Origin: a virus
Taxonomy: Duplodnaviria > Caudoviricetes
Virus record (IMG/VR): IMGVR_UViG_3300028630_000010
Location: 2,733-66,732 of that record
Length of the DNA stretch: 64,000 nt
Strand: one strand, 5' to 3'
Each line of letters starts with the position of its first letter. The first letter of the stretch is position 1. Shown piece by piece: positions 2,890-64,000 of the stretch. Below the pieces are notes generated by a model. It was not told where the DNA came from. It made no database searches and was given only the letters and a program-made list of their open reading frames with translations. The position numbers were made by a program, and so were the translations under genes.

Positions 2890-3791
2890 CTATCGCCGAG
2901 GTGATGAACATCGGCCTTCAATTTAAGGTTCGCGGTAGCGCCCGTAACCTTCACCCCACATCAATGCCTCTTTGGTCGCTCATCAAAGGCATCCAAGAGA
3001 GCAAGGCGCTTGCCGATCTGACCGCGAAGGGGCGTGCCATCACCGACAAGAAGGAATTCAGAGCGTGGAAGCCCCGTAATCTGATGTCGGTCTACCTCGC
3101 CGTGAAGTTTCGGGAGGCGGAGGGGCGGGCCGACGAGGCGAACGTGTGCGGCTACACCGGCCTGGCCGGGTTCGACTTCGACGACGTGGACGCCGGGGCC
3201 GTGCTGGAGAAGCTGCGCGAGATCCCGCAGGTGGTGTGCGCCGGGGTGTCCGCATCGGGCAAAGGTGTCTGGTGCGCGGCGCGGGTGGCGTGCGGCACGG
3301 CGCGGGAGTATATGGCCTGCTTCGCCGACGGTGTGGCGGCGTTCGAGGCGGCGGGGCTGCCGGGGCTGGACAAGGGAGCGCATGATCCCACAAGGGCGCG
3401 TTTTGTGGCATCCAGCCCCGAATGCTGGTGGCGGTGGGATGCTATGGGGGATATTCCCGCCTTCCAGCCTGTCGGAAATATCTCGGTGTTGAGCGGCGCC
3501 AAGAAGAAAGAATCGAGAGGCAAGACCAAGCTGCCCGCCGGTTACAAGATCTCCCCCGAGCTGGCCTTCGATGAGGTGCGTCAGGAGCTTTCGAGGGCAG
3601 CGACCACGGCGGACGGGGACAGGAACACGGAGAAGGCCCGCCAATGTGGTCGGCTCAAGGCCATAGCCAAGAAGGCGGGAGTTAACCCCGCCGCGTATGT
3701 TCAGGCGTTTGTTGACACATGGGACGAAGTGGGAAGTACCCACAAGAAGACGGTTTCAATGGCCAATCGGCTGTTGATGGGTAAGGACTAA
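2886..3791 (+). CDS. BT4734/VirE-N-like primase-family protein with a PriCT-like tail
   Basis: YTGLAGFDFDDV...VSASGKGVW...DPTRARFVAS matches the VirE-N/BT4734 pattern; C-terminal DGDRNTE. Confidence 0.75.
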   Translation: MTIAEVMNIGLQFKVRGSARNLHPTSMPLWSLIKGIQESKALADLTAKGRAITDKKEFRAWKPRNLMSVYLAVKFREAEGRADEANVCGYTGLAGFDFDDVDAGAVLEKLREIPQVVCAGVSASGKGVWCAARVACGTAREYMACFADGVAAFEAAGLPGLDKGAHDPTRARFVASSPECWWRWDAMGDIPAFQPVGNISVLSGAKKKESRGKTKLPAGYKISPELAFDEVRQELSRAATTADGDRNTEKARQCGRLKAIAKKAGVNPAAYVQAFVDTWDEVGSTHKKTVSMANRLLMGKD

Positions 3792-8042: not shown

Positions 8043-8303
8043 ATGGCTATCTTGAAGAAACCCGAACCGAAGAAACGTGCATGTCAGTGCCCGCCCCCTG
8101 TCACGGGGGGGATATCGGGACTTATGGGTGCGGCCCGCACATTGGCGCCGACCTCTGAAGAGAGCGCGATGCGCCGCGAGATGAGCAAGATTCAACTCGC
8201 CACGATGAAGGCGGATCTGCGTAAGCATGTTGCCGATGCCGACATGGCGGAGACGCTGGCGAAGCGGGAGGCGTTTTTGCTTCATCGGATGGCGAAGCGG
8301 TAA
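8043..8303 (+). CDS. hypothetical protein (86 aa)
   Basis: RBS AAGGAG upstream. Confidence 0.6.
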   Translation: MAILKKPEPKKRACQCPPPVTGGISGLMGAARTLAPTSEESAMRREMSKIQLATMKADLRKHVADADMAETLAKREAFLLHRMAKR

Positions 8304-8387
8304 CAGAAATTTTTCCGCCCCGCGGCCGGGTCGCACGCAGCCTACCCGGCGTGAAAATCGCGTGTCGCACCCGGCCCCGGGCGGTCT

Positions 8388-8417
8388 AACCAAACGGTAA
8401 ACCAAACGGTAAACCAA
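8388..8417 (+). repeat. 12-bp tandem repeat (AACCAAACGGTA x2.5)
   Basis: Read directly; lies just upstream of the RBS of the SSB-like gene. Confidence 0.85.
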
Positions 8418-8433
8418 GAAACGAGGAACACAG

Positions 8434-9513
8434 ATGAATGACCAAGATCAGGATATCTTCGGCGAAGTCGTCGAAACAGAAGCCCCCAAGGAACAGAACG
8501 ATCCGACTAAGCAGCTTTATCTGCTGCCGGCGGGTGTAGCGGAGTGGTTCGTCCCCAAGCATGTGTTTGGCAAGCCCACGGATGTGAAGGACTGCGCCGC
8601 CTCGTTGGTTGTGCGCTTCCTCTCCTGGCAGATCGCCCCGGAGAATCAGGCGGTGTACATGGGTTCCGGTGTCTCTACGCCCGGCACCCTGCGTAATCAG
8701 CTCATTGTCCGGTATCACCCGGTCCCCGACGGTTATGCTGACGGCACGTTATTAGGCCGCGCTCCCTGCAAGTTGCAGTTTGGGGAGAGCTGCAAGGCGT
8801 GCGAAGAGCGGATCAAGGCGGACAAACGCTTCCCCCGCGACAGCCAGCCCGCCGATTACTTTAAGAAGGTAATCGCGGCGTTCAAGCCCAAGGACAAGAC
8901 CGTCATGCTGGGTCAGGTCTATGAGCAGGGCGACGGCGGGGAGTGGGTGACGGACGGGAAGATCAGGGCGTTTGAGTTCGGGAACTTCGTGCGTAACGGG
9001 CGCACCTTTACGCAGATCCTGAACGATCGCGCCAATGACGCTGACAAGCGCGTCCGCATTGACAAAAAATCGTATGCGGGCTACGTCTCGCCGGTCGCGA
9101 TTCGTATCACCTACGCATGGCCGACCAAGGGAGGCAAGCCGGAGCATGGCCAGTACTCCACATGGTCGCCTGTGGACGCCCTGCCCTTCCCCGTCGAGGC
9201 CGGGGGGCCGGATGTGTCGAAGTTCAGTAAGGAGTGGGCTATCGCCATGGCGAAGCATGACCCCGCTTCGTGGATCAACCGCAACGCCTTCCCCAAGCTG
9301 GTTTGGTCCGAGGTCGGCAAGTGGGTCTACGACGTGTTCACCGGCAAGGCTTCCGTGGCCCCCAAGGTCGATCTGGACACGGCGGACTTCGGGGAGCTGC
9401 TGGAGATCGTCGGCAATCACCCCGACAAGTTCGCCGATCTTGACGTGAGCCAGTTCAGCTATGACATGGTTGAGGCGCTGCGTGAGATCGTGAAGGGGGT
9501 GCTACATGGCTAA
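8434..9513 (+). CDS. putative gp32-like single-stranded DNA-binding protein
   Basis: Zn-ligand-like APCKLQFGESCKACEE, an aromatic-rich core and an acidic C-terminal region; sits between the polymerase and RecA. Confidence 0.6.
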   Translation: MNDQDQDIFGEVVETEAPKEQNDPTKQLYLLPAGVAEWFVPKHVFGKPTDVKDCAASLVVRFLSWQIAPENQAVYMGSGVSTPGTLRNQLIVRYHPVPDGYADGTLLGRAPCKLQFGESCKACEERIKADKRFPRDSQPADYFKKVIAAFKPKDKTVMLGQVYEQGDGGEWVTDGKIRAFEFGNFVRNGRTFTQILNDRANDADKRVRIDKKSYAGYVSPVAIRITYAWPTKGGKPEHGQYSTWSPVDALPFPVEAGGPDVSKFSKEWAIAMAKHDPASWINRNAFPKLVWSEVGKWVYDVFTGKASVAPKVDLDTADFGELLEIVGNHPDKFADLDVSQFSYDMVEALREIVKGVLHG

Positions 9514-59057: not shown

Positions 59058-59333
59058 TCAACCCTCGACCACAACCCAGTCATCGGCAAGGATGTCGGTC
59101 TGGCTGGCAAGCCAGGGGACAAAGCCGTTGTCGGCGGTGTGCATGCCAATGTAGGGCATAAGGGTGCCGCTGTCCACGCCATCGACGGGGCCGTTCTCGC
59201 GGACAGAAAACTCAGCGTCGGTGTAGGGGTTGACGTGGCGGAGCCACATGCCCTTGCCGTTCCAGCCCTGCCGTGCAACGCGCTTGCCCTGTTTGAGCAA
59301 CTGAAGCGCCCATCCGAAGTTCCGTTCTTCCAT
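59058..59333 (-). CDS. tad2: DUF2829 / Thoeris anti-defence Tad2-family protein
   Basis: NFGWALQLLKQGKRVARQGWNGKGMWL...PWLASQTDILADDW is the family signature. Confidence 0.85.
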   Translation of the reverse strand: MEERNFGWALQLLKQGKRVARQGWNGKGMWLRHVNPYTDAEFSVRENGPVDGVDSGTLMPYIGMHTADNGFVPWLASQTDILADDWVVVEG

Positions 59334-59398: not shown

Positions 59399-61120
59399 TC
59401 AGCACAACGCCTCTTCCCCGCCGTCCCCCGCCCTCTGCCATGCCGGAACGTACAAGGAGCCATCGCGGACATAGCCGCGCCCGGTCGCCTCGGCCAACTT
59501 CATCTGATCCCCGCCCCAGCGGGCGCCGCAGCACATGTACTCGAAGGCGTCGGCGATATGAGAGTGGGCGTTCTTCGCCGGTTCGTCCGTGTTCATGTAC
59601 TCCGCGCCGATCTTGCGCCGCCCCCAGACATAGCCGCCGCCTATCGACCGGATAAGCGTGGTGCAGCCGGGGTCGATCTGCACCGCCCCCTTGTTGTTGA
59701 TGATGCGGTTCAAGAAGTGCCGCACCGCCTCAAGGCGCGTGCCGATGTCGTTGTTCGGCAGCCGGGCCGGGGGAACTGCGTCAAATCCGCAGCCCCGCAT
59801 AAGCAGAATGCCGCCCAGCGGAGAGTGCTCCGAGCGGTTCAACGCCGCCGGGTCGCAGTAGAGGGTAAGATCAGTGATCGAAAAGCCATGCGCCGCCAGC
59901 ATGGGGCGCAGGACGTTGTTGGCGAAGGTCTCCACGCTCCCCGTCGGGTCTACAGCCTCGGCGAACACATTCAGCCGACCGTCGGAGCCCATATAGCCCA
60001 GCACCGCGCGGCGGGTCTGTCCGAAGTCCATGCCGCCTATCAAACGGGTGCCGGGGGCCGGCCAGGGCACGCCGTTCTTCGCCACATGCCACCTCTCGGC
60101 GAAGTCGCTGAAAACCGGATCTCCCACCTCCGTCTTGCTGTAGAGGCAGCACACGTAGCGGTCAACATGCTCAGAGCCGGAGGTGTCGATGATGTTCTGG
60201 TAGTAGTCCCAGTGCTCGTTGAGATGCTCGATATTCTCCGCCGGGGGGATGCCCGGCCGCTGCCCCTCGTTCAACTCGTACCTCCACTTCTCGAGCTCGT
60301 CATCCCACACCTTGAACGCCGCCGGGGGCTGCTCGAAGTACACCTCCTTCTCCGGATTGGCCCCGCCGTCGCGCGATTTCTTGTACCACCATGAGTCTTC
60401 AGAGGCGGCATTCGTGTCCATGTCGACCCCGTGGTTCTTGAAGTAGTGCCAATATCCCTTGTTGTCCTGCCACGCCACCGGAAGCTCCTTGAAGTTGGGC
60501 GGGGCCATCGACAGATCAGGATAGCGCCCGCAGCGGCCGACCACCGCGTCCTTCGCCTTCTCCGAGATCGTCGTGGCCTCGTTGATCATCCCCCCGCTGA
60601 AGTTGTTGGAAAGCAGATTGCCCAGCGCCCCCGCCTTGTCCAGACCGAACCCCCGCAGCTCGAGAATATGCCTCACCCCGCCCTTCGTCTGCTCCAACGT
60701 ACCGAACACACCGTACTTCGAGCCCGTCATCCGCGTCCGGGGAAACATCGCCATCCAGGTGTCAACCAGCGTCGCCTTCAACAACGTCAGGGTGCCGCGC
60801 ACCATCGAGAACCTGTCCCGCACCACGCCGTCACGGCACGGATACTGCCGCAGGTGGCGCATGTTCATGTCCGCGGCCATGCCAACTGTCTTGCCGCTGC
60901 CAACCGGCCCCATCACACCGCGCACCAGCCGCTCCTCCCTGTGCAGCAGCTCCATCGTCCGGCTCGGGTAGTAGGTCAGATCCCGCCCCTTCCGGTACTC
61001 CTCCCACCGCTTCAACAGCGTCTCGTCACTCAGGCCCTCGTCATCGCCCGAAGCAACCCGGCGCCCAATGTCCGCCTCAAGATCGTCCAGCGCCTCGGCA
61101 TAAGATGTGTCCCGCCCCAT
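59399..61120 (-). CDS. terL: terminase large subunit
   Basis: Walker A GPVGSGKT, Walker B region MINEA, nuclease motifs GMDFG and HSHIADAFEY. Confidence 0.92.
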   Translation of the reverse strand: MGRDTSYAEALDDLEADIGRRVASGDDEGLSDETLLKRWEEYRKGRDLTYYPSRTMELLHREERLVRGVMGPVGSGKTVGMAADMNMRHLRQYPCRDGVVRDRFSMVRGTLTLLKATLVDTWMAMFPRTRMTGSKYGVFGTLEQTKGGVRHILELRGFGLDKAGALGNLLSNNFSGGMINEATTISEKAKDAVVGRCGRYPDLSMAPPNFKELPVAWQDNKGYWHYFKNHGVDMDTNAASEDSWWYKKSRDGGANPEKEVYFEQPPAAFKVWDDELEKWRYELNEGQRPGIPPAENIEHLNEHWDYYQNIIDTSGSEHVDRYVCCLYSKTEVGDPVFSDFAERWHVAKNGVPWPAPGTRLIGGMDFGQTRRAVLGYMGSDGRLNVFAEAVDPTGSVETFANNVLRPMLAAHGFSITDLTLYCDPAALNRSEHSPLGGILLMRGCGFDAVPPARLPNNDIGTRLEAVRHFLNRIINNKGAVQIDPGCTTLIRSIGGGYVWGRRKIGAEYMNTDEPAKNAHSHIADAFEYMCCGARWGGDQMKLAEATGRGYVRDGSLYVPAWQRAGDGGEEALC

Positions 61121-61124
61121 AACC

Positions 61125-61508
61125 TCACCCCTTCCTGTTGATCTTGCGCCATGCCGCGCTCAGATCGGGCAGGCACTTCGACAGAAACACTCCCGCCCAG
61201 TCGCAGCATTGGTCGAACGTGTAGTGATCCACGAGAAACATATACCCGTCCGTCGTTTCCCGGGGGGCGTGCGCTTGGGAGTACGCCGCGCCCCTCCGAT
61301 GAAGCAGCGCCTCCATCGACTCATGCAGCAAACACGCCACACCGTCCGCCCAACTCTTCCCCTTGCAACGAATGACGATCTTCTGGCACCCCCCATCCGC
61401 CGGGTTGTACCAAACCGCCGCGGCGCACCCATCGGTGTCTCCGTCCAGCTCGACCCGCACATTGTCGAAGCCGAGAATGTATGTCCCAACCAATATCGGT
61501 TTGCTCAT
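61125..61508 (-). CDS. small protein with an HExxE metallopeptidase-like motif
   Basis: CLLHESMEALL; ATGA overlap with the terS stop. Confidence 0.55.
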   Translation of the reverse strand: MSKPILVGTYILGFDNVRVELDGDTDGCAAAVWYNPADGGCQKIVIRCKGKSWADGVACLLHESMEALLHRRGAAYSQAHAPRETTDGYMFLVDHYTFDQCCDWAGVFLSKCLPDLSAAWRKINRKG

Positions 61509-62266
61509 GGCGTGTCTCCTTTCGCCCCCGCCGGCACACACTCCATCGCCTTGAACGCCGTCGCCCTGTCCGCAAACAATACCGTGTCCACGTTCTCCCC
61601 AACAGGAGCCGCCTCCACCGGAGCCCCGTCCACACCAGGCGCAGGCTTCGGGGGCGGCCCGCCCTTCGCCCCCTTCGGAACCTTCACCCCAACGTCCTTC
61701 CCCACAAACCCCAACCCCTTCAATAAATTCACCCCAAGGTTGTTGTCGAACTTCCTCAGCGTCACCCTCTCCCCGCCACGCACATCCTCAACGTCGTACC
61801 CGTTCAGACTCCTCCCCCATAAATCATCCTCCAGCCGACTCGCCGCCACCTCCCGCCGCACCTTCACCGCCGCCGCCCATAAGGCCGCATACTCCGCATC
61901 CTCCCGCCACTCCACCACCTCCAACCATGTGGACTTCGACGCTTTAAGCGCGTCCTCAGTCGATCCCTTTCCTATGTTCCCCGCCATCTGCCCCAACAGC
62001 ATCAGCGCCCTCCGCCTCGGACGCTTCCCGAGTATGCCAAGGCACAGCCCGCCCCCTCCCCTCTTGTGCCGCTCCACATATTCCAGCCCCGCTATCCGCG
62101 CCAGCTTCCTCACTATCGCCTCAGGTATGTCCGCAGGAGCCGTGTCCATGAACCGCCCACGCTCCTTCCCCTCTGGCATGTTCTCTGCCACAGCCTCTGC
62201 CACAGCCTCTGCCACAGCCTCTGCCTCTGCCTCATTGCTCACTCTCTCCGCATTTTCGCTCTCCAT
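61505..62266 (-). CDS. terS: terminase small subunit
   Basis: RLEDDLWGRSLNG...RKFDNNLGVNLLKG; upstream of terL; AAGGAGG RBS. Confidence 0.75.
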   Translation of the reverse strand: MESENAERVSNEAEAEAVAEAVAEAVAENMPEGKERGRFMDTAPADIPEAIVRKLARIAGLEYVERHKRGGGGLCLGILGKRPRRRALMLLGQMAGNIGKGSTEDALKASKSTWLEVVEWREDAEYAALWAAAVKVRREVAASRLEDDLWGRSLNGYDVEDVRGGERVTLRKFDNNLGVNLLKGLGFVGKDVGVKVPKGAKGGPPPKPAPGVDGAPVEAAPVGENVDTVLFADRATAFKAMECVPAGAKGDTP

Positions 62267-62659
62267 ACTGCCCTCCTTGCCCTTTCGCCGCGATATATTA
62301 CCTCTCCCACGCCCCCTTTACAACCCTTTTTTTTCACCCCGCCCCTCTTCATGTCCTCTGCGCCGCCTCTGAATTATCAGAACGTTTGCCCCTCACATCA
62401 CAGGGGAGGGAGCGAAAGGGGTCCCCCCGTTCCCAACCGCCGCCCCCCTCCGCGGCGGAGTCCCAGTCCCCCCATAGGGCGGGGTCGGCGGGTCGGCGGG
62501 GTGTGGGGGGGTGAGGGGCTAGCTGCGAGCGTGCAGCGTGCGCGGCGCGCGATCCGCGAGCAAACGTGTGCAGGTGATAGGCGCACATTATGACGGCGAA
62601 ATCGCGTCGCATAATATACATTATGTAAAATAGGTGTTGTGGTCAGGGTGGGTCGCGAC

Positions 62660-63003
62660 GGCGAACGGTTCGCCGAGGGGTCGTGGCGAACGGGTCGCCG
62701 AGGGGTCGAGGCGAACGGGTCGCCGAGGGGTCGAGGCGAACGGGTCGCCGACAGGGGCTCGACGGCGAACGGGTCGCCGACAGGGGCTCGACGGCGAACG
62801 GGTCGCCGACAGGGGCTCGACGGCGAACGGGTCGCCGACAGGGGCTCGACGGCGAACGGGTCGCCGAGGGGTCGTGGCGAACGGTTCGCCGAGGGGTCGT
62901 GGCGAACGGTTCGCCGAGGGGTCGAGGCGAACGGGTCGCCGAGGGGTCGTGGCGAACGGGTCGCCGAGGGGTCGTGGCGAACGGGTCGCCGAGGGGTCGT
63001 GGC
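62660..63003. repeat. 13-unit tandem hairpin repeat array (9 x 25 bp, 4 x 29 bp)
   Basis: Core GGCGAACGG(G/T)TCGCCGA plus linker GGGGTCG(T/A) or CAGGGGCTCGAC. Confidence 0.95.
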
Positions 63004-63005
63004 TG

Positions 63006-63167
63006 GTTTCAATTCACGCGCCCCGCGTGGGGCGCGTCCGACTATGCGGATATAGTATATTAGAGGTCGGTTTCAATTCACGCGTCCCGCGTGGGGCGCG
63101 ACAGGTTCTTCGAATCCGACAATATCGCGAACCTGTTTCAATTCACGCGTCCCGCGTGGGGCGCGTC
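63006..63167 (-). CRISPR. orphan type I-C CRISPR mini-array (3 x 33-bp repeats; spacers of 31 and 32 bp)
   Basis: Repeats at 63006-63038, 63070-63102 and 63135-63167. The minus-strand repeat GTCGCGCCCCACGCGGGACGCGTGAATTGAAAC has the I-C hairpin and ATTGAAAC end. No cas genes in the window. Confidence 0.9.
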
Positions 63168-63406
63168 GAGGGGAGAGGCGGCTACACTTCGCGCGGGCGG
63201 GCGCGGGCGCGCGGTTCAGGGCGGCGGGGAGGGAGCGAAACAACTCCCCTTTCTCTGCGTTTTTTTGATCCCCGCGTTGCGCGACTCACGCGCGAAAATT
63301 ATGCGAAAAAAAAATTTTTTTGCGGATGGTGCACCATGGGGAAAATTCGCAAAAACCCCAATAAAATAGGGGTTTTTGGGGGATAAAAAAAATTTGCGTG
63401 AGGGGG

Positions 63407-63435
63407 TTGACAGATGAACGGGGATATATTATATT
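63407..63435 (+). promoter_or_regulatory. strong sigma70-type (early) promoter
   Basis: TTGACA-N17-TATATT preceded by A/T tracts (UP-like). Confidence 0.85.
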
Positions 63436-63530
63436 AGATGCAAATGGGGCGCATACCGCGCCCCACCCAGACAACAACAACACCGCGCCCGCCCGTGGGC
63501 ATCGTACGCGGGCAGAAAGGAGAGCGAAAG

Positions 63531-64000
<470 letters not shown>

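Follow-up and report, generated by a model that had tools for sequence, protein, structure and literature searches.

A phage-borne type I-C mini-array with a spacer resembling the early promoter of its phage family: a possible trace of rivalry between related phages

Introduction

The stretch of DNA analysed here (64,000 nucleotides, in the following called the window) forms the final 64 kb of an IMG/VR virus record of 66.7 kb. It contains a short CRISPR-like array beside an early phage promoter, and one of the two spacers of the array resembles this promoter. A preliminary description had offered two explanations for the resemblance, either a switch on the phage's own early transcription which depends on the host Cascade, or a guide against the promoter of a competing relative from which the carrier itself has escaped. 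This raises the question where the spacer comes from, what a guide made from it could pair with and which function fits the locus best.

Results

Genomic context

The window represents a Kiritimatiellia phage that looks virulent. The ORFs scanned did not include any integrase. The replication and recombination module is located on the plus strand from position 1 to about 21000, and the late genes, including the large terminase, the portal and a BspA-repeat tail protein, occupy the minus strand from about 62266 down to 21157. Array and promoter share the divergent intergenic region between this late operon and the first early gene (DUF7666; 63531-63998, plus strand), which runs off the contig end. 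The phage contig does not contain any Cas homologue.

The large terminase gene (59399-61541, minus strand) was called with 573 aa, and a short, separate ORF lies ahead of it in a different frame. In many relatives, the terminase is one protein of 707-715 aa. Insertions of the intein, HNH or LAGLIDADG type are present in the terminase or portal of some relatives. Between terminase and portal, the window phage has a Tad2-like gene (approximately 59058-59333, minus strand), L114 an Acb2/Tad1-like gene (8195-8512) and L118 dGTP_diPhyd_N (3331-3678). This position looks like an exchangeable anti-defence slot. At the contig ends, bases 1-144 are 97% identical to contig positions 66566-66709 (window 63834-63977). 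Contig L221 extends past the end of the window contig and has, about 2 kb downstream, a second stretch which is 88% identical to window 63487-63782. The duplicated end stretches are DUF7666 paralogues or a terminal repeat, and are probably the reason for the contig end at this point.

Array anatomy

The array consists of three 33-nt repeats, which are separated by inserts of 31 and 32 nt. Its parts and surroundings are as follows.

62650-63004, no strand assigned: fourteen tandem hairpin units of 25/29 nt, abutting R1
63006-63038, minus strand: repeat R1, last in the minus-strand reading, with a perfect 8-bp stem
63039-63069, minus strand: spacer 1, 31 nt, with a terminal 4-nt inverted repeat
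63070-63102, minus strand: repeat R2, with a G-to-A change within the stem
63103-63134, minus strand: spacer 2, 32 nt, almost a hairpin, with a 6-nt terminal inverted repeat
63135-63167, minus strand: repeat R3, first in the minus-strand reading, with two differences to the host consensus repeat
63168-63348, minus strand: stretch at the leader position, not homologous to host I-C leaders and without consensus promoter
63349-63380, no strand assigned: bidirectional terminator-like hairpin with T runs, between array and early promoter

Read on the minus strand, the repeats end with ATTGAAAC and contain a GC stem-loop. Since they end with ATTGAAAC on this strand, the minus strand is the canonical I-C reading direction, and spacer 1 becomes the leader-distal spacer. 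R1 differs from the host consensus repeat at position 2 only. The stem substitutions of R2 and R3 fall outside the common host repeat variants; the G-to-A change of R2 is found in none of the 12 commonest variants among approximately 3,650 host repeats. Each of the three repeats has kept an intact hairpin and an intact 3' handle-coding end. Upstream of the array, neither a host-type leader, by comparison with host I-C leaders, nor a consensus promoter, within 62250-63600, was found.

Each of the tandem units next to R1 forms a GGCGA/TCGCC hairpin, and these units are absent from all relatives examined. Among 14 contigs encoding the neighbouring 253-aa protein, four further copies of the array were retrieved and compared. 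The array region is 100% identical in all four, with no sign of spacer turnover among them.

Two related sequences were observed elsewhere. In L197, a host-array contig, a spacer position on the reverse strand (1333-1366) holds the end of a tandem unit together with the start of an inverted repeat, 30/34 identical to 62989-63022. Either the assembly is a chimera with a variant of the window phage, or the inverted junction is real. A 102-kb contig of a Kiritimatiellia MAG (L130:3921-4017) carries an isolated array of two repeats and one spacer of 31 nt, with no long array nearby.

Host type I-C systems and their PAM

Over 31 nt, the array repeat is identical to array repeats found in three MAGs of Kiritimatiellia and in over 80 metagenome contigs. 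Those host arrays which have flanking sequence follow cas3-cas5c-cas8c-cas7c-cas4-cas1c, which confirms type I-C and the minus-strand orientation. By its repeat end, its GC stem-loop and the repeat shared with cas-adjoining arrays, the phage array thus belongs to the type I-C repeat family.

From the host arrays 3,572 spacers (2,009 unique) were extracted, with lengths of 32-36 nt. Only 13 of the 3,572 have a length of 31 nt, so the phage spacers lie at the short extreme. Neither of the two phage spacers is present among the 3,572. Dozens of host spacers match the window phage and its relatives, many of them perfectly. These matches tie an uncultured phage to hosts of Kiritimatiellia, a phylum with few known phages.

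The preliminary description had taken TTC as the I-C PAM. This does not apply here: the 5' flanks of 54 protospacers on the phage family (at most three mismatches) read GTC, GTT or GCC, and 47 of the 54 have G at position -3. TTC should therefore not be assumed for every I-C system. The preference is split among the host arrays (host loci L131-L212), some of which use only GCC and others GTC/GTT. This suggests two variants of the host I-C system with one common repeat.

Spacer 1 and the early promoter

The following features are needed for the comparison of spacer 1 with the promoter.

63048-63066, plus strand: core of spacer 1, 19/19 identical to the early promoter of the relative L114; over its first 17 nt, 16 positions agree with the phage's own promoter
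63407-63435, plus strand: predicted early promoter of the phage, TTGACA (63407-63412), 17 nt, TATATT (63430-63435); conserved with A/T tract and G run in relatives
63422-63438, plus strand: promoter copy of the 17-mer, overlapping the -10 box; T at 63429, as opposed to G in spacer 1 and in the four orthologous relatives
63439, plus strand: T; G in all four orthologous relatives
63446-63464, plus strand: conserved GC stem-loop, just downstream of the -10 box and near the predicted start of the early transcript

The predicted promoter is of the sigma-70 type. It matches the hexamers at 11 of 12 positions, with the 17-nt spacing conserved in the relatives, and it is the sole sigma-70-like site in 62250-63600. 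The 17-mer at 63048-63064 recurs within the window only here, with one mismatch, so the reported match over the -10 box is real. In dinucleotide-preserving shuffles of the window, a second match to the 17-mer at up to three mismatches occurred in 0 of 100, and a chance origin was rejected. No other match to spacer 1 was detected elsewhere in the contig at up to 12 mismatches.

The full alignment in the minus-strand I-C orientation was reproduced as well, with 19/31 identical positions. Mismatches are located at crRNA positions 1, 2, 3 and 5, so that one of the first five positions pairs, and what pairing there is begins at position 6. The PAM position reads CAT, compared to the empirical GTC/GTT/GCC. 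The carrier locus thus differs from the spacer in the seed and lacks the PAM, as expected if self-targeting is avoided. Judged by sequence, the phage's own promoter cannot be engaged by a spacer 1 guide, because four of its five PAM-proximal positions do not pair and there is no PAM. On these two points, the proposed Cascade-dependent switch is not supported.

On the plus strand, spacer 1 reads as the 17-nt promoter spacer, TATATT, AGAGG and TCG. A second, rightward promoter inside spacer 1 was considered and rejected: a -35 box is lacking, and R1 fills the space in which the conserved A/T tract and G run would have to lie.

The early promoter in related phages

The relatives found, with TerL identities of 68-98%, come mainly from assemblies of ENA and Logan. 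In four (L114, L116, L120 and L123; TerL 72-89% identical), the homologous intergenic region is included in readable form, and these were used for the promoter alignment. The TerL-relative contigs L236-L239, L118 and L119 end about 1 kb upstream of TerL, before the promoter, and were left out. None of the four relatives (0/4) carries the array. The family promoter follows a common template of A/T tract, G run, TTGAC(A/G), 15 variable bases, AG-TATATT-AGAGGCAAAT and a GC hairpin. Over 19 nt, spacer 1 equals the consensus of this family. The promoters compare with spacer 1 as follows.

L114 promoter: 20/31 identical, 19 contiguous, PAM position GAT
Own promoter: 19/31 identical, PAM position CAT
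L116, L120 and L123 promoters: 18/31 identical, PAM position GAT

Within the spacer-matching stretch, the phage's own promoter has T instead of the family's G at two positions, 63429 and 63439, and it differs from spacer 1 at both. As it departs at these positions and L114 is closer, the resemblance is best described as homology within a promoter family. In all four relatives, crRNA positions 1-3 of spacer 1 are mismatched.

L114 has two ORFs at the site of the array, which marks the slot beside the early promoter as a variable accessory position. At the array-homologous site of L114 (4140-4166, minus strand), a 27-nt stretch, noticed post hoc, looks like the repeat with its loop deleted (approximately 22 of 26 aligned bases); it may represent a recombination site or a solitary repeat that has decayed. 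L118 has the first 10 bases of this stretch in common with L114 (L118:45-60).

Host spacers against the same promoter site

One host spacer, present in the arrays L134 and L152, represents a promoter of this family, from the -35 box to three bases past the -10 box. Its protospacer starts directly after a GCC PAM, the reverse complement of the conserved GGC in AGAGGC. Since host arrays target this GCC-flanked promoter site, the -10 region is a natural I-C target. The same short element of the family early promoter is therefore represented in both host and phage arrays. GCC is present at this position in all four orthologous relatives; the phage's own promoter has GCA on the minus strand because of the T at 63439. 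The first 15 nt of the host spacer site are identical in the own promoter. The T at 63439 thus looks like a PAM-escape change from this host spacer, as far as one lineage can indicate.

Further host spacers match 63349-63408 (minus strand) with 28-29 of 32-34 identities, covering the terminator at 63349-63380 and the sequence directly upstream of the -35 box. Those just upstream of the -35 box use a GTC PAM, the complement of GAC in TTGAC.

Spacer 2 and the paired spacer ends

Both phage spacers have ends which pair with each other. The terminal inverted repeats of 4 nt (spacer 1) and 6 nt (spacer 2) extend to 5 and 8 bp when adjoining repeat bases are included. Among the 2,009 unique host spacers, 5 have a terminal inverted repeat of at least 4 nt and none has one of at least 5 nt. 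Spacers captured in the ordinary way would not be expected to show such paired ends. For spacer 2, the predicted fold is a near-complete hairpin.

The first 9-11 nt of spacer 2 on the minus strand equal the right arm of a conserved inverted repeat in host leaders, CGCGAACC...GGTTCGCG. In two host leader families, the L132 and L136 types, this element follows closely on cas2, approximately 145 nt ahead of the first repeat; it was observed in the leaders of L132, L136, L151, L156, L176 and L207. In L206 and L208, which represent two other leader families, the arm is present in degenerate form only. An 11-mer match to the element from the first position onwards occurs in 3 of 2,009 host spacers. 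The triplets flanking the leader element are ACA, GGG, AGG and GAG, none of which is a PAM.

Searches for targets and homologues

No exact match was found for an 18-mer of spacer 1 in IMG/VR, for a 20-mer of spacer 1 in JGI metagenomes or for a 21-mer of spacer 2 in IMG/VR. At up to three mismatches, neither spacer matched in 401 Kiritimatiellia genomes and three host MAGs. A perfect PAM-flanked target of spacer 1 was not found in IMG/VR, the JGI metagenomes or the 401 Kiritimatiellia genomes. The perfect protospacer in related phages, which the preliminary description had suggested to look for, was likewise not detected; all four relatives read GAT at the PAM.

The repeat scan of IMG/VR and the comparison with GenBank phages gave no match, and Rfam contained nothing relevant. 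Close TerL relatives in IMG/VR were found neither by single-sequence nor by profile search. When one position was left free, 109 matches to the 17-mer were obtained in IMG/VR. All of them are in AT-rich unrelated genomes (GC 0.15-0.39) and were attributed to chance. Similarly, the family-promoter pattern matched only low-GC unrelated phages in IMG/VR.

In 161 kb of host cas and array flanks, PAM-flanked seed matches of either spacer were not above the background of random host spacers. Full-length matches in host cas flanks were at the level of shuffled sequences; one of 22/31 between spacer 1 and L168 was scattered and judged to be chance. An element like CreR/CreA was not seen in the host.

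Discussion

Spacer 1 as a possible mark of phage rivalry

We tentatively favour the explanation that spacer 1 marks rivalry between related phages and is not a switch on the phage's own genes. On this explanation, spacer 1 was probably derived from the family early promoter, either from the promoter of a relative or from an ancestral copy. If spacer 1 comes from the family promoter, its likeness to the phage's own promoter 374 bp away reflects family homology and not a working pair of guide and target. The array would be transcribed from the minus strand and its transcript cut by the host Cas5c. The spacer 1 crRNA would then be loaded into host Cascade and act together with Cas3. Cascade and Cas3 could attack co-infecting relatives which carry a cognate promoter variant beside a GTC, GTT or GCC PAM. 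The outcome would be heterotypic exclusion, by analogy to what is described for virus-borne mini-arrays. The second proposal of the preliminary description, a guide against a relative's promoter with self-escape, survives in part. It agrees with the better match of L114 and with the identity to the family consensus over 19 nt, but the relatives mismatch at positions 1-3 and have GAT at the PAM, and a perfect protospacer was not found.

Decoy or anti-CRISPR RNA

A rather unlikely but serious alternative is an RNA anti-CRISPR or regulatory decoy, similar to Racr or to viral crlRNAs ('Cracr arrays'), in which the repeat transcript soaks up or misdirects Cas proteins of the host I-C system. The promoter likeness of spacer 1 would then be a by-product of array capture, for example through recombination of the phage promoter with a host spacer directed against it. 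The heavy targeting of this phage by host I-C spacers implies a need for counter-defence, and several features of the array are in line with such a role: slightly altered repeats, the lack of a host leader, short spacers which fold back on themselves, the position in a variable accessory slot beside the early promoter, where L114 has two ORFs, and the start of spacer 2 (9-11 nt), which equals a conserved host leader element. Moreover, RacrIC1 acts against type I-C (PMC10651486), and reports exist of nine I-C Cracr arrays with two spacers. Spacers closed by hairpins would be a novel design feature, should the array turn out to be a decoy or regulator. However, the 161 kb of host cas and array flanks gave no PAM-flanked seed match above background, the flanks of the leader element (ACA/GGG/AGG/GAG) are not PAMs and no CreR/CreA-like element was seen in the host. 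In addition, the spacers are nearly full length, compared to 21-24 nt for I-E Cracr guides, and three repeats with spacers do not form a solitary repeat unit.

Decaying relic

We consider it improbable that the array is a decaying relic, a fragment of a host array picked up by recombination which is no longer used and drifts. Substitutions in all three repeats, the missing leader and visible promoter, the lack of a target in the searches and the absence of the array from the relatives, one of which, L114, may have retained a single degenerate repeat at the corresponding site, would all be compatible with decay. On the other hand, the 3' handle-coding ends and hairpins have remained intact in every repeat, the four further copies that were compared are 100% identical in this region, and the paired spacer ends are far from chance, which argues for selection on RNA or DNA structure.

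Regulatory readings

Very unlikely, in our view, is a broader regulatory function, in which the mini-array would be a viral module of hairpin-closed guides mimicking regulatory DNA, the family early promoter in the case of spacer 1 and the host CRISPR leader element in the case of spacer 2. Host I-C Cascade would serve as a non-cutting roadblock under relaxed PAM and seed rules, which would time early transcription in this phage or in related phages and lower the expression of the host array.

Target binding by type I Cascade starts at the PAM and the seed. It is hardly credible that early transcription is tuned by host Cascade which, guided by spacer 1, binds but does not cleave the -10 region of the phage itself: the match over the -10 box is real and has the same orientation as the array, and promoter repression by partially matching guides is possible, but known regulatory guides pair PAM-proximally beside a PAM, whereas here positions 1, 2, 3 and 5 mismatch next to CAT, an array-less relative matches better, and the own promoter differs from spacer 1 at both of its departures from the family consensus.

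Comparison with known systems

Racr elements are single repeats without spacers, and RacrIC1 blocks type I-C by repeat mimicry (Camara-Wilpert et al., 2023; PMC10651486). The window array is similar in being a phage-borne mimic of a host repeat without cas genes, and type I-C is a validated target class of Racr. It is no solitary unit, as it has three repeats with inserts of 31 and 32 nt.

Viral Cracr guides pair over at least 9 PAM-proximal bp with promoters of host cas or toxin genes (Liu et al., bioRxiv 10.1101/2024.10.29.618823). Promoter pairing over at least 9 PAM-proximal bases beside a PAM is described for host CreA/CreR together with viral Cracr RNAs (bioRxiv 10.1101/2024.10.29.618823). 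The window array is comparable to them in that it is encoded by a phage, has two guides and slightly degenerate repeats, and is related in sequence to a promoter; two-spacer I-C examples exist. In contrast to these guides, it is mismatched at the PAM-proximal end, the promoter concerned is the phage's own, where one of the first five positions pairs and the PAM position is CAT, and no host target of its spacers was found above background.

The closest parallel is given by virus-borne mini-arrays, whose spacers match array-near regions of closely related viruses (Medvedeva et al., 2019; PMC6858448). In their carriers, the orthologous loci have point mutations or deletions which prevent self-targeting, and the phage versions are without leaders and may gain spacers by recombination with host arrays (PMC6858448). 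The window array does not have the host-like leader and promoter known from the archaeal examples only, and among the four readable relatives it has no near-perfect PAM-flanked match, the best being L114 with 20/31 and GAT. It differs further in that the spacer comes from a non-coding promoter -10 region and not from a gene, and in its paired spacer ends, private repeat substitutions and abutting tandem hairpins. Like the mini-arrays, it has one to two spacers and host-like repeats without cas genes, its spacer resembles an array-near locus of relatives, the carrier copy of this locus is mutated, and it shares the leaderless form with the phage versions. The rivalry reading, which we tentatively take as the best one, corresponds to this published phenomenon. 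The rivalry model of archaeal mini-arrays would then have a bacterial counterpart of type I-C, with a promoter instead of a gene as the target.
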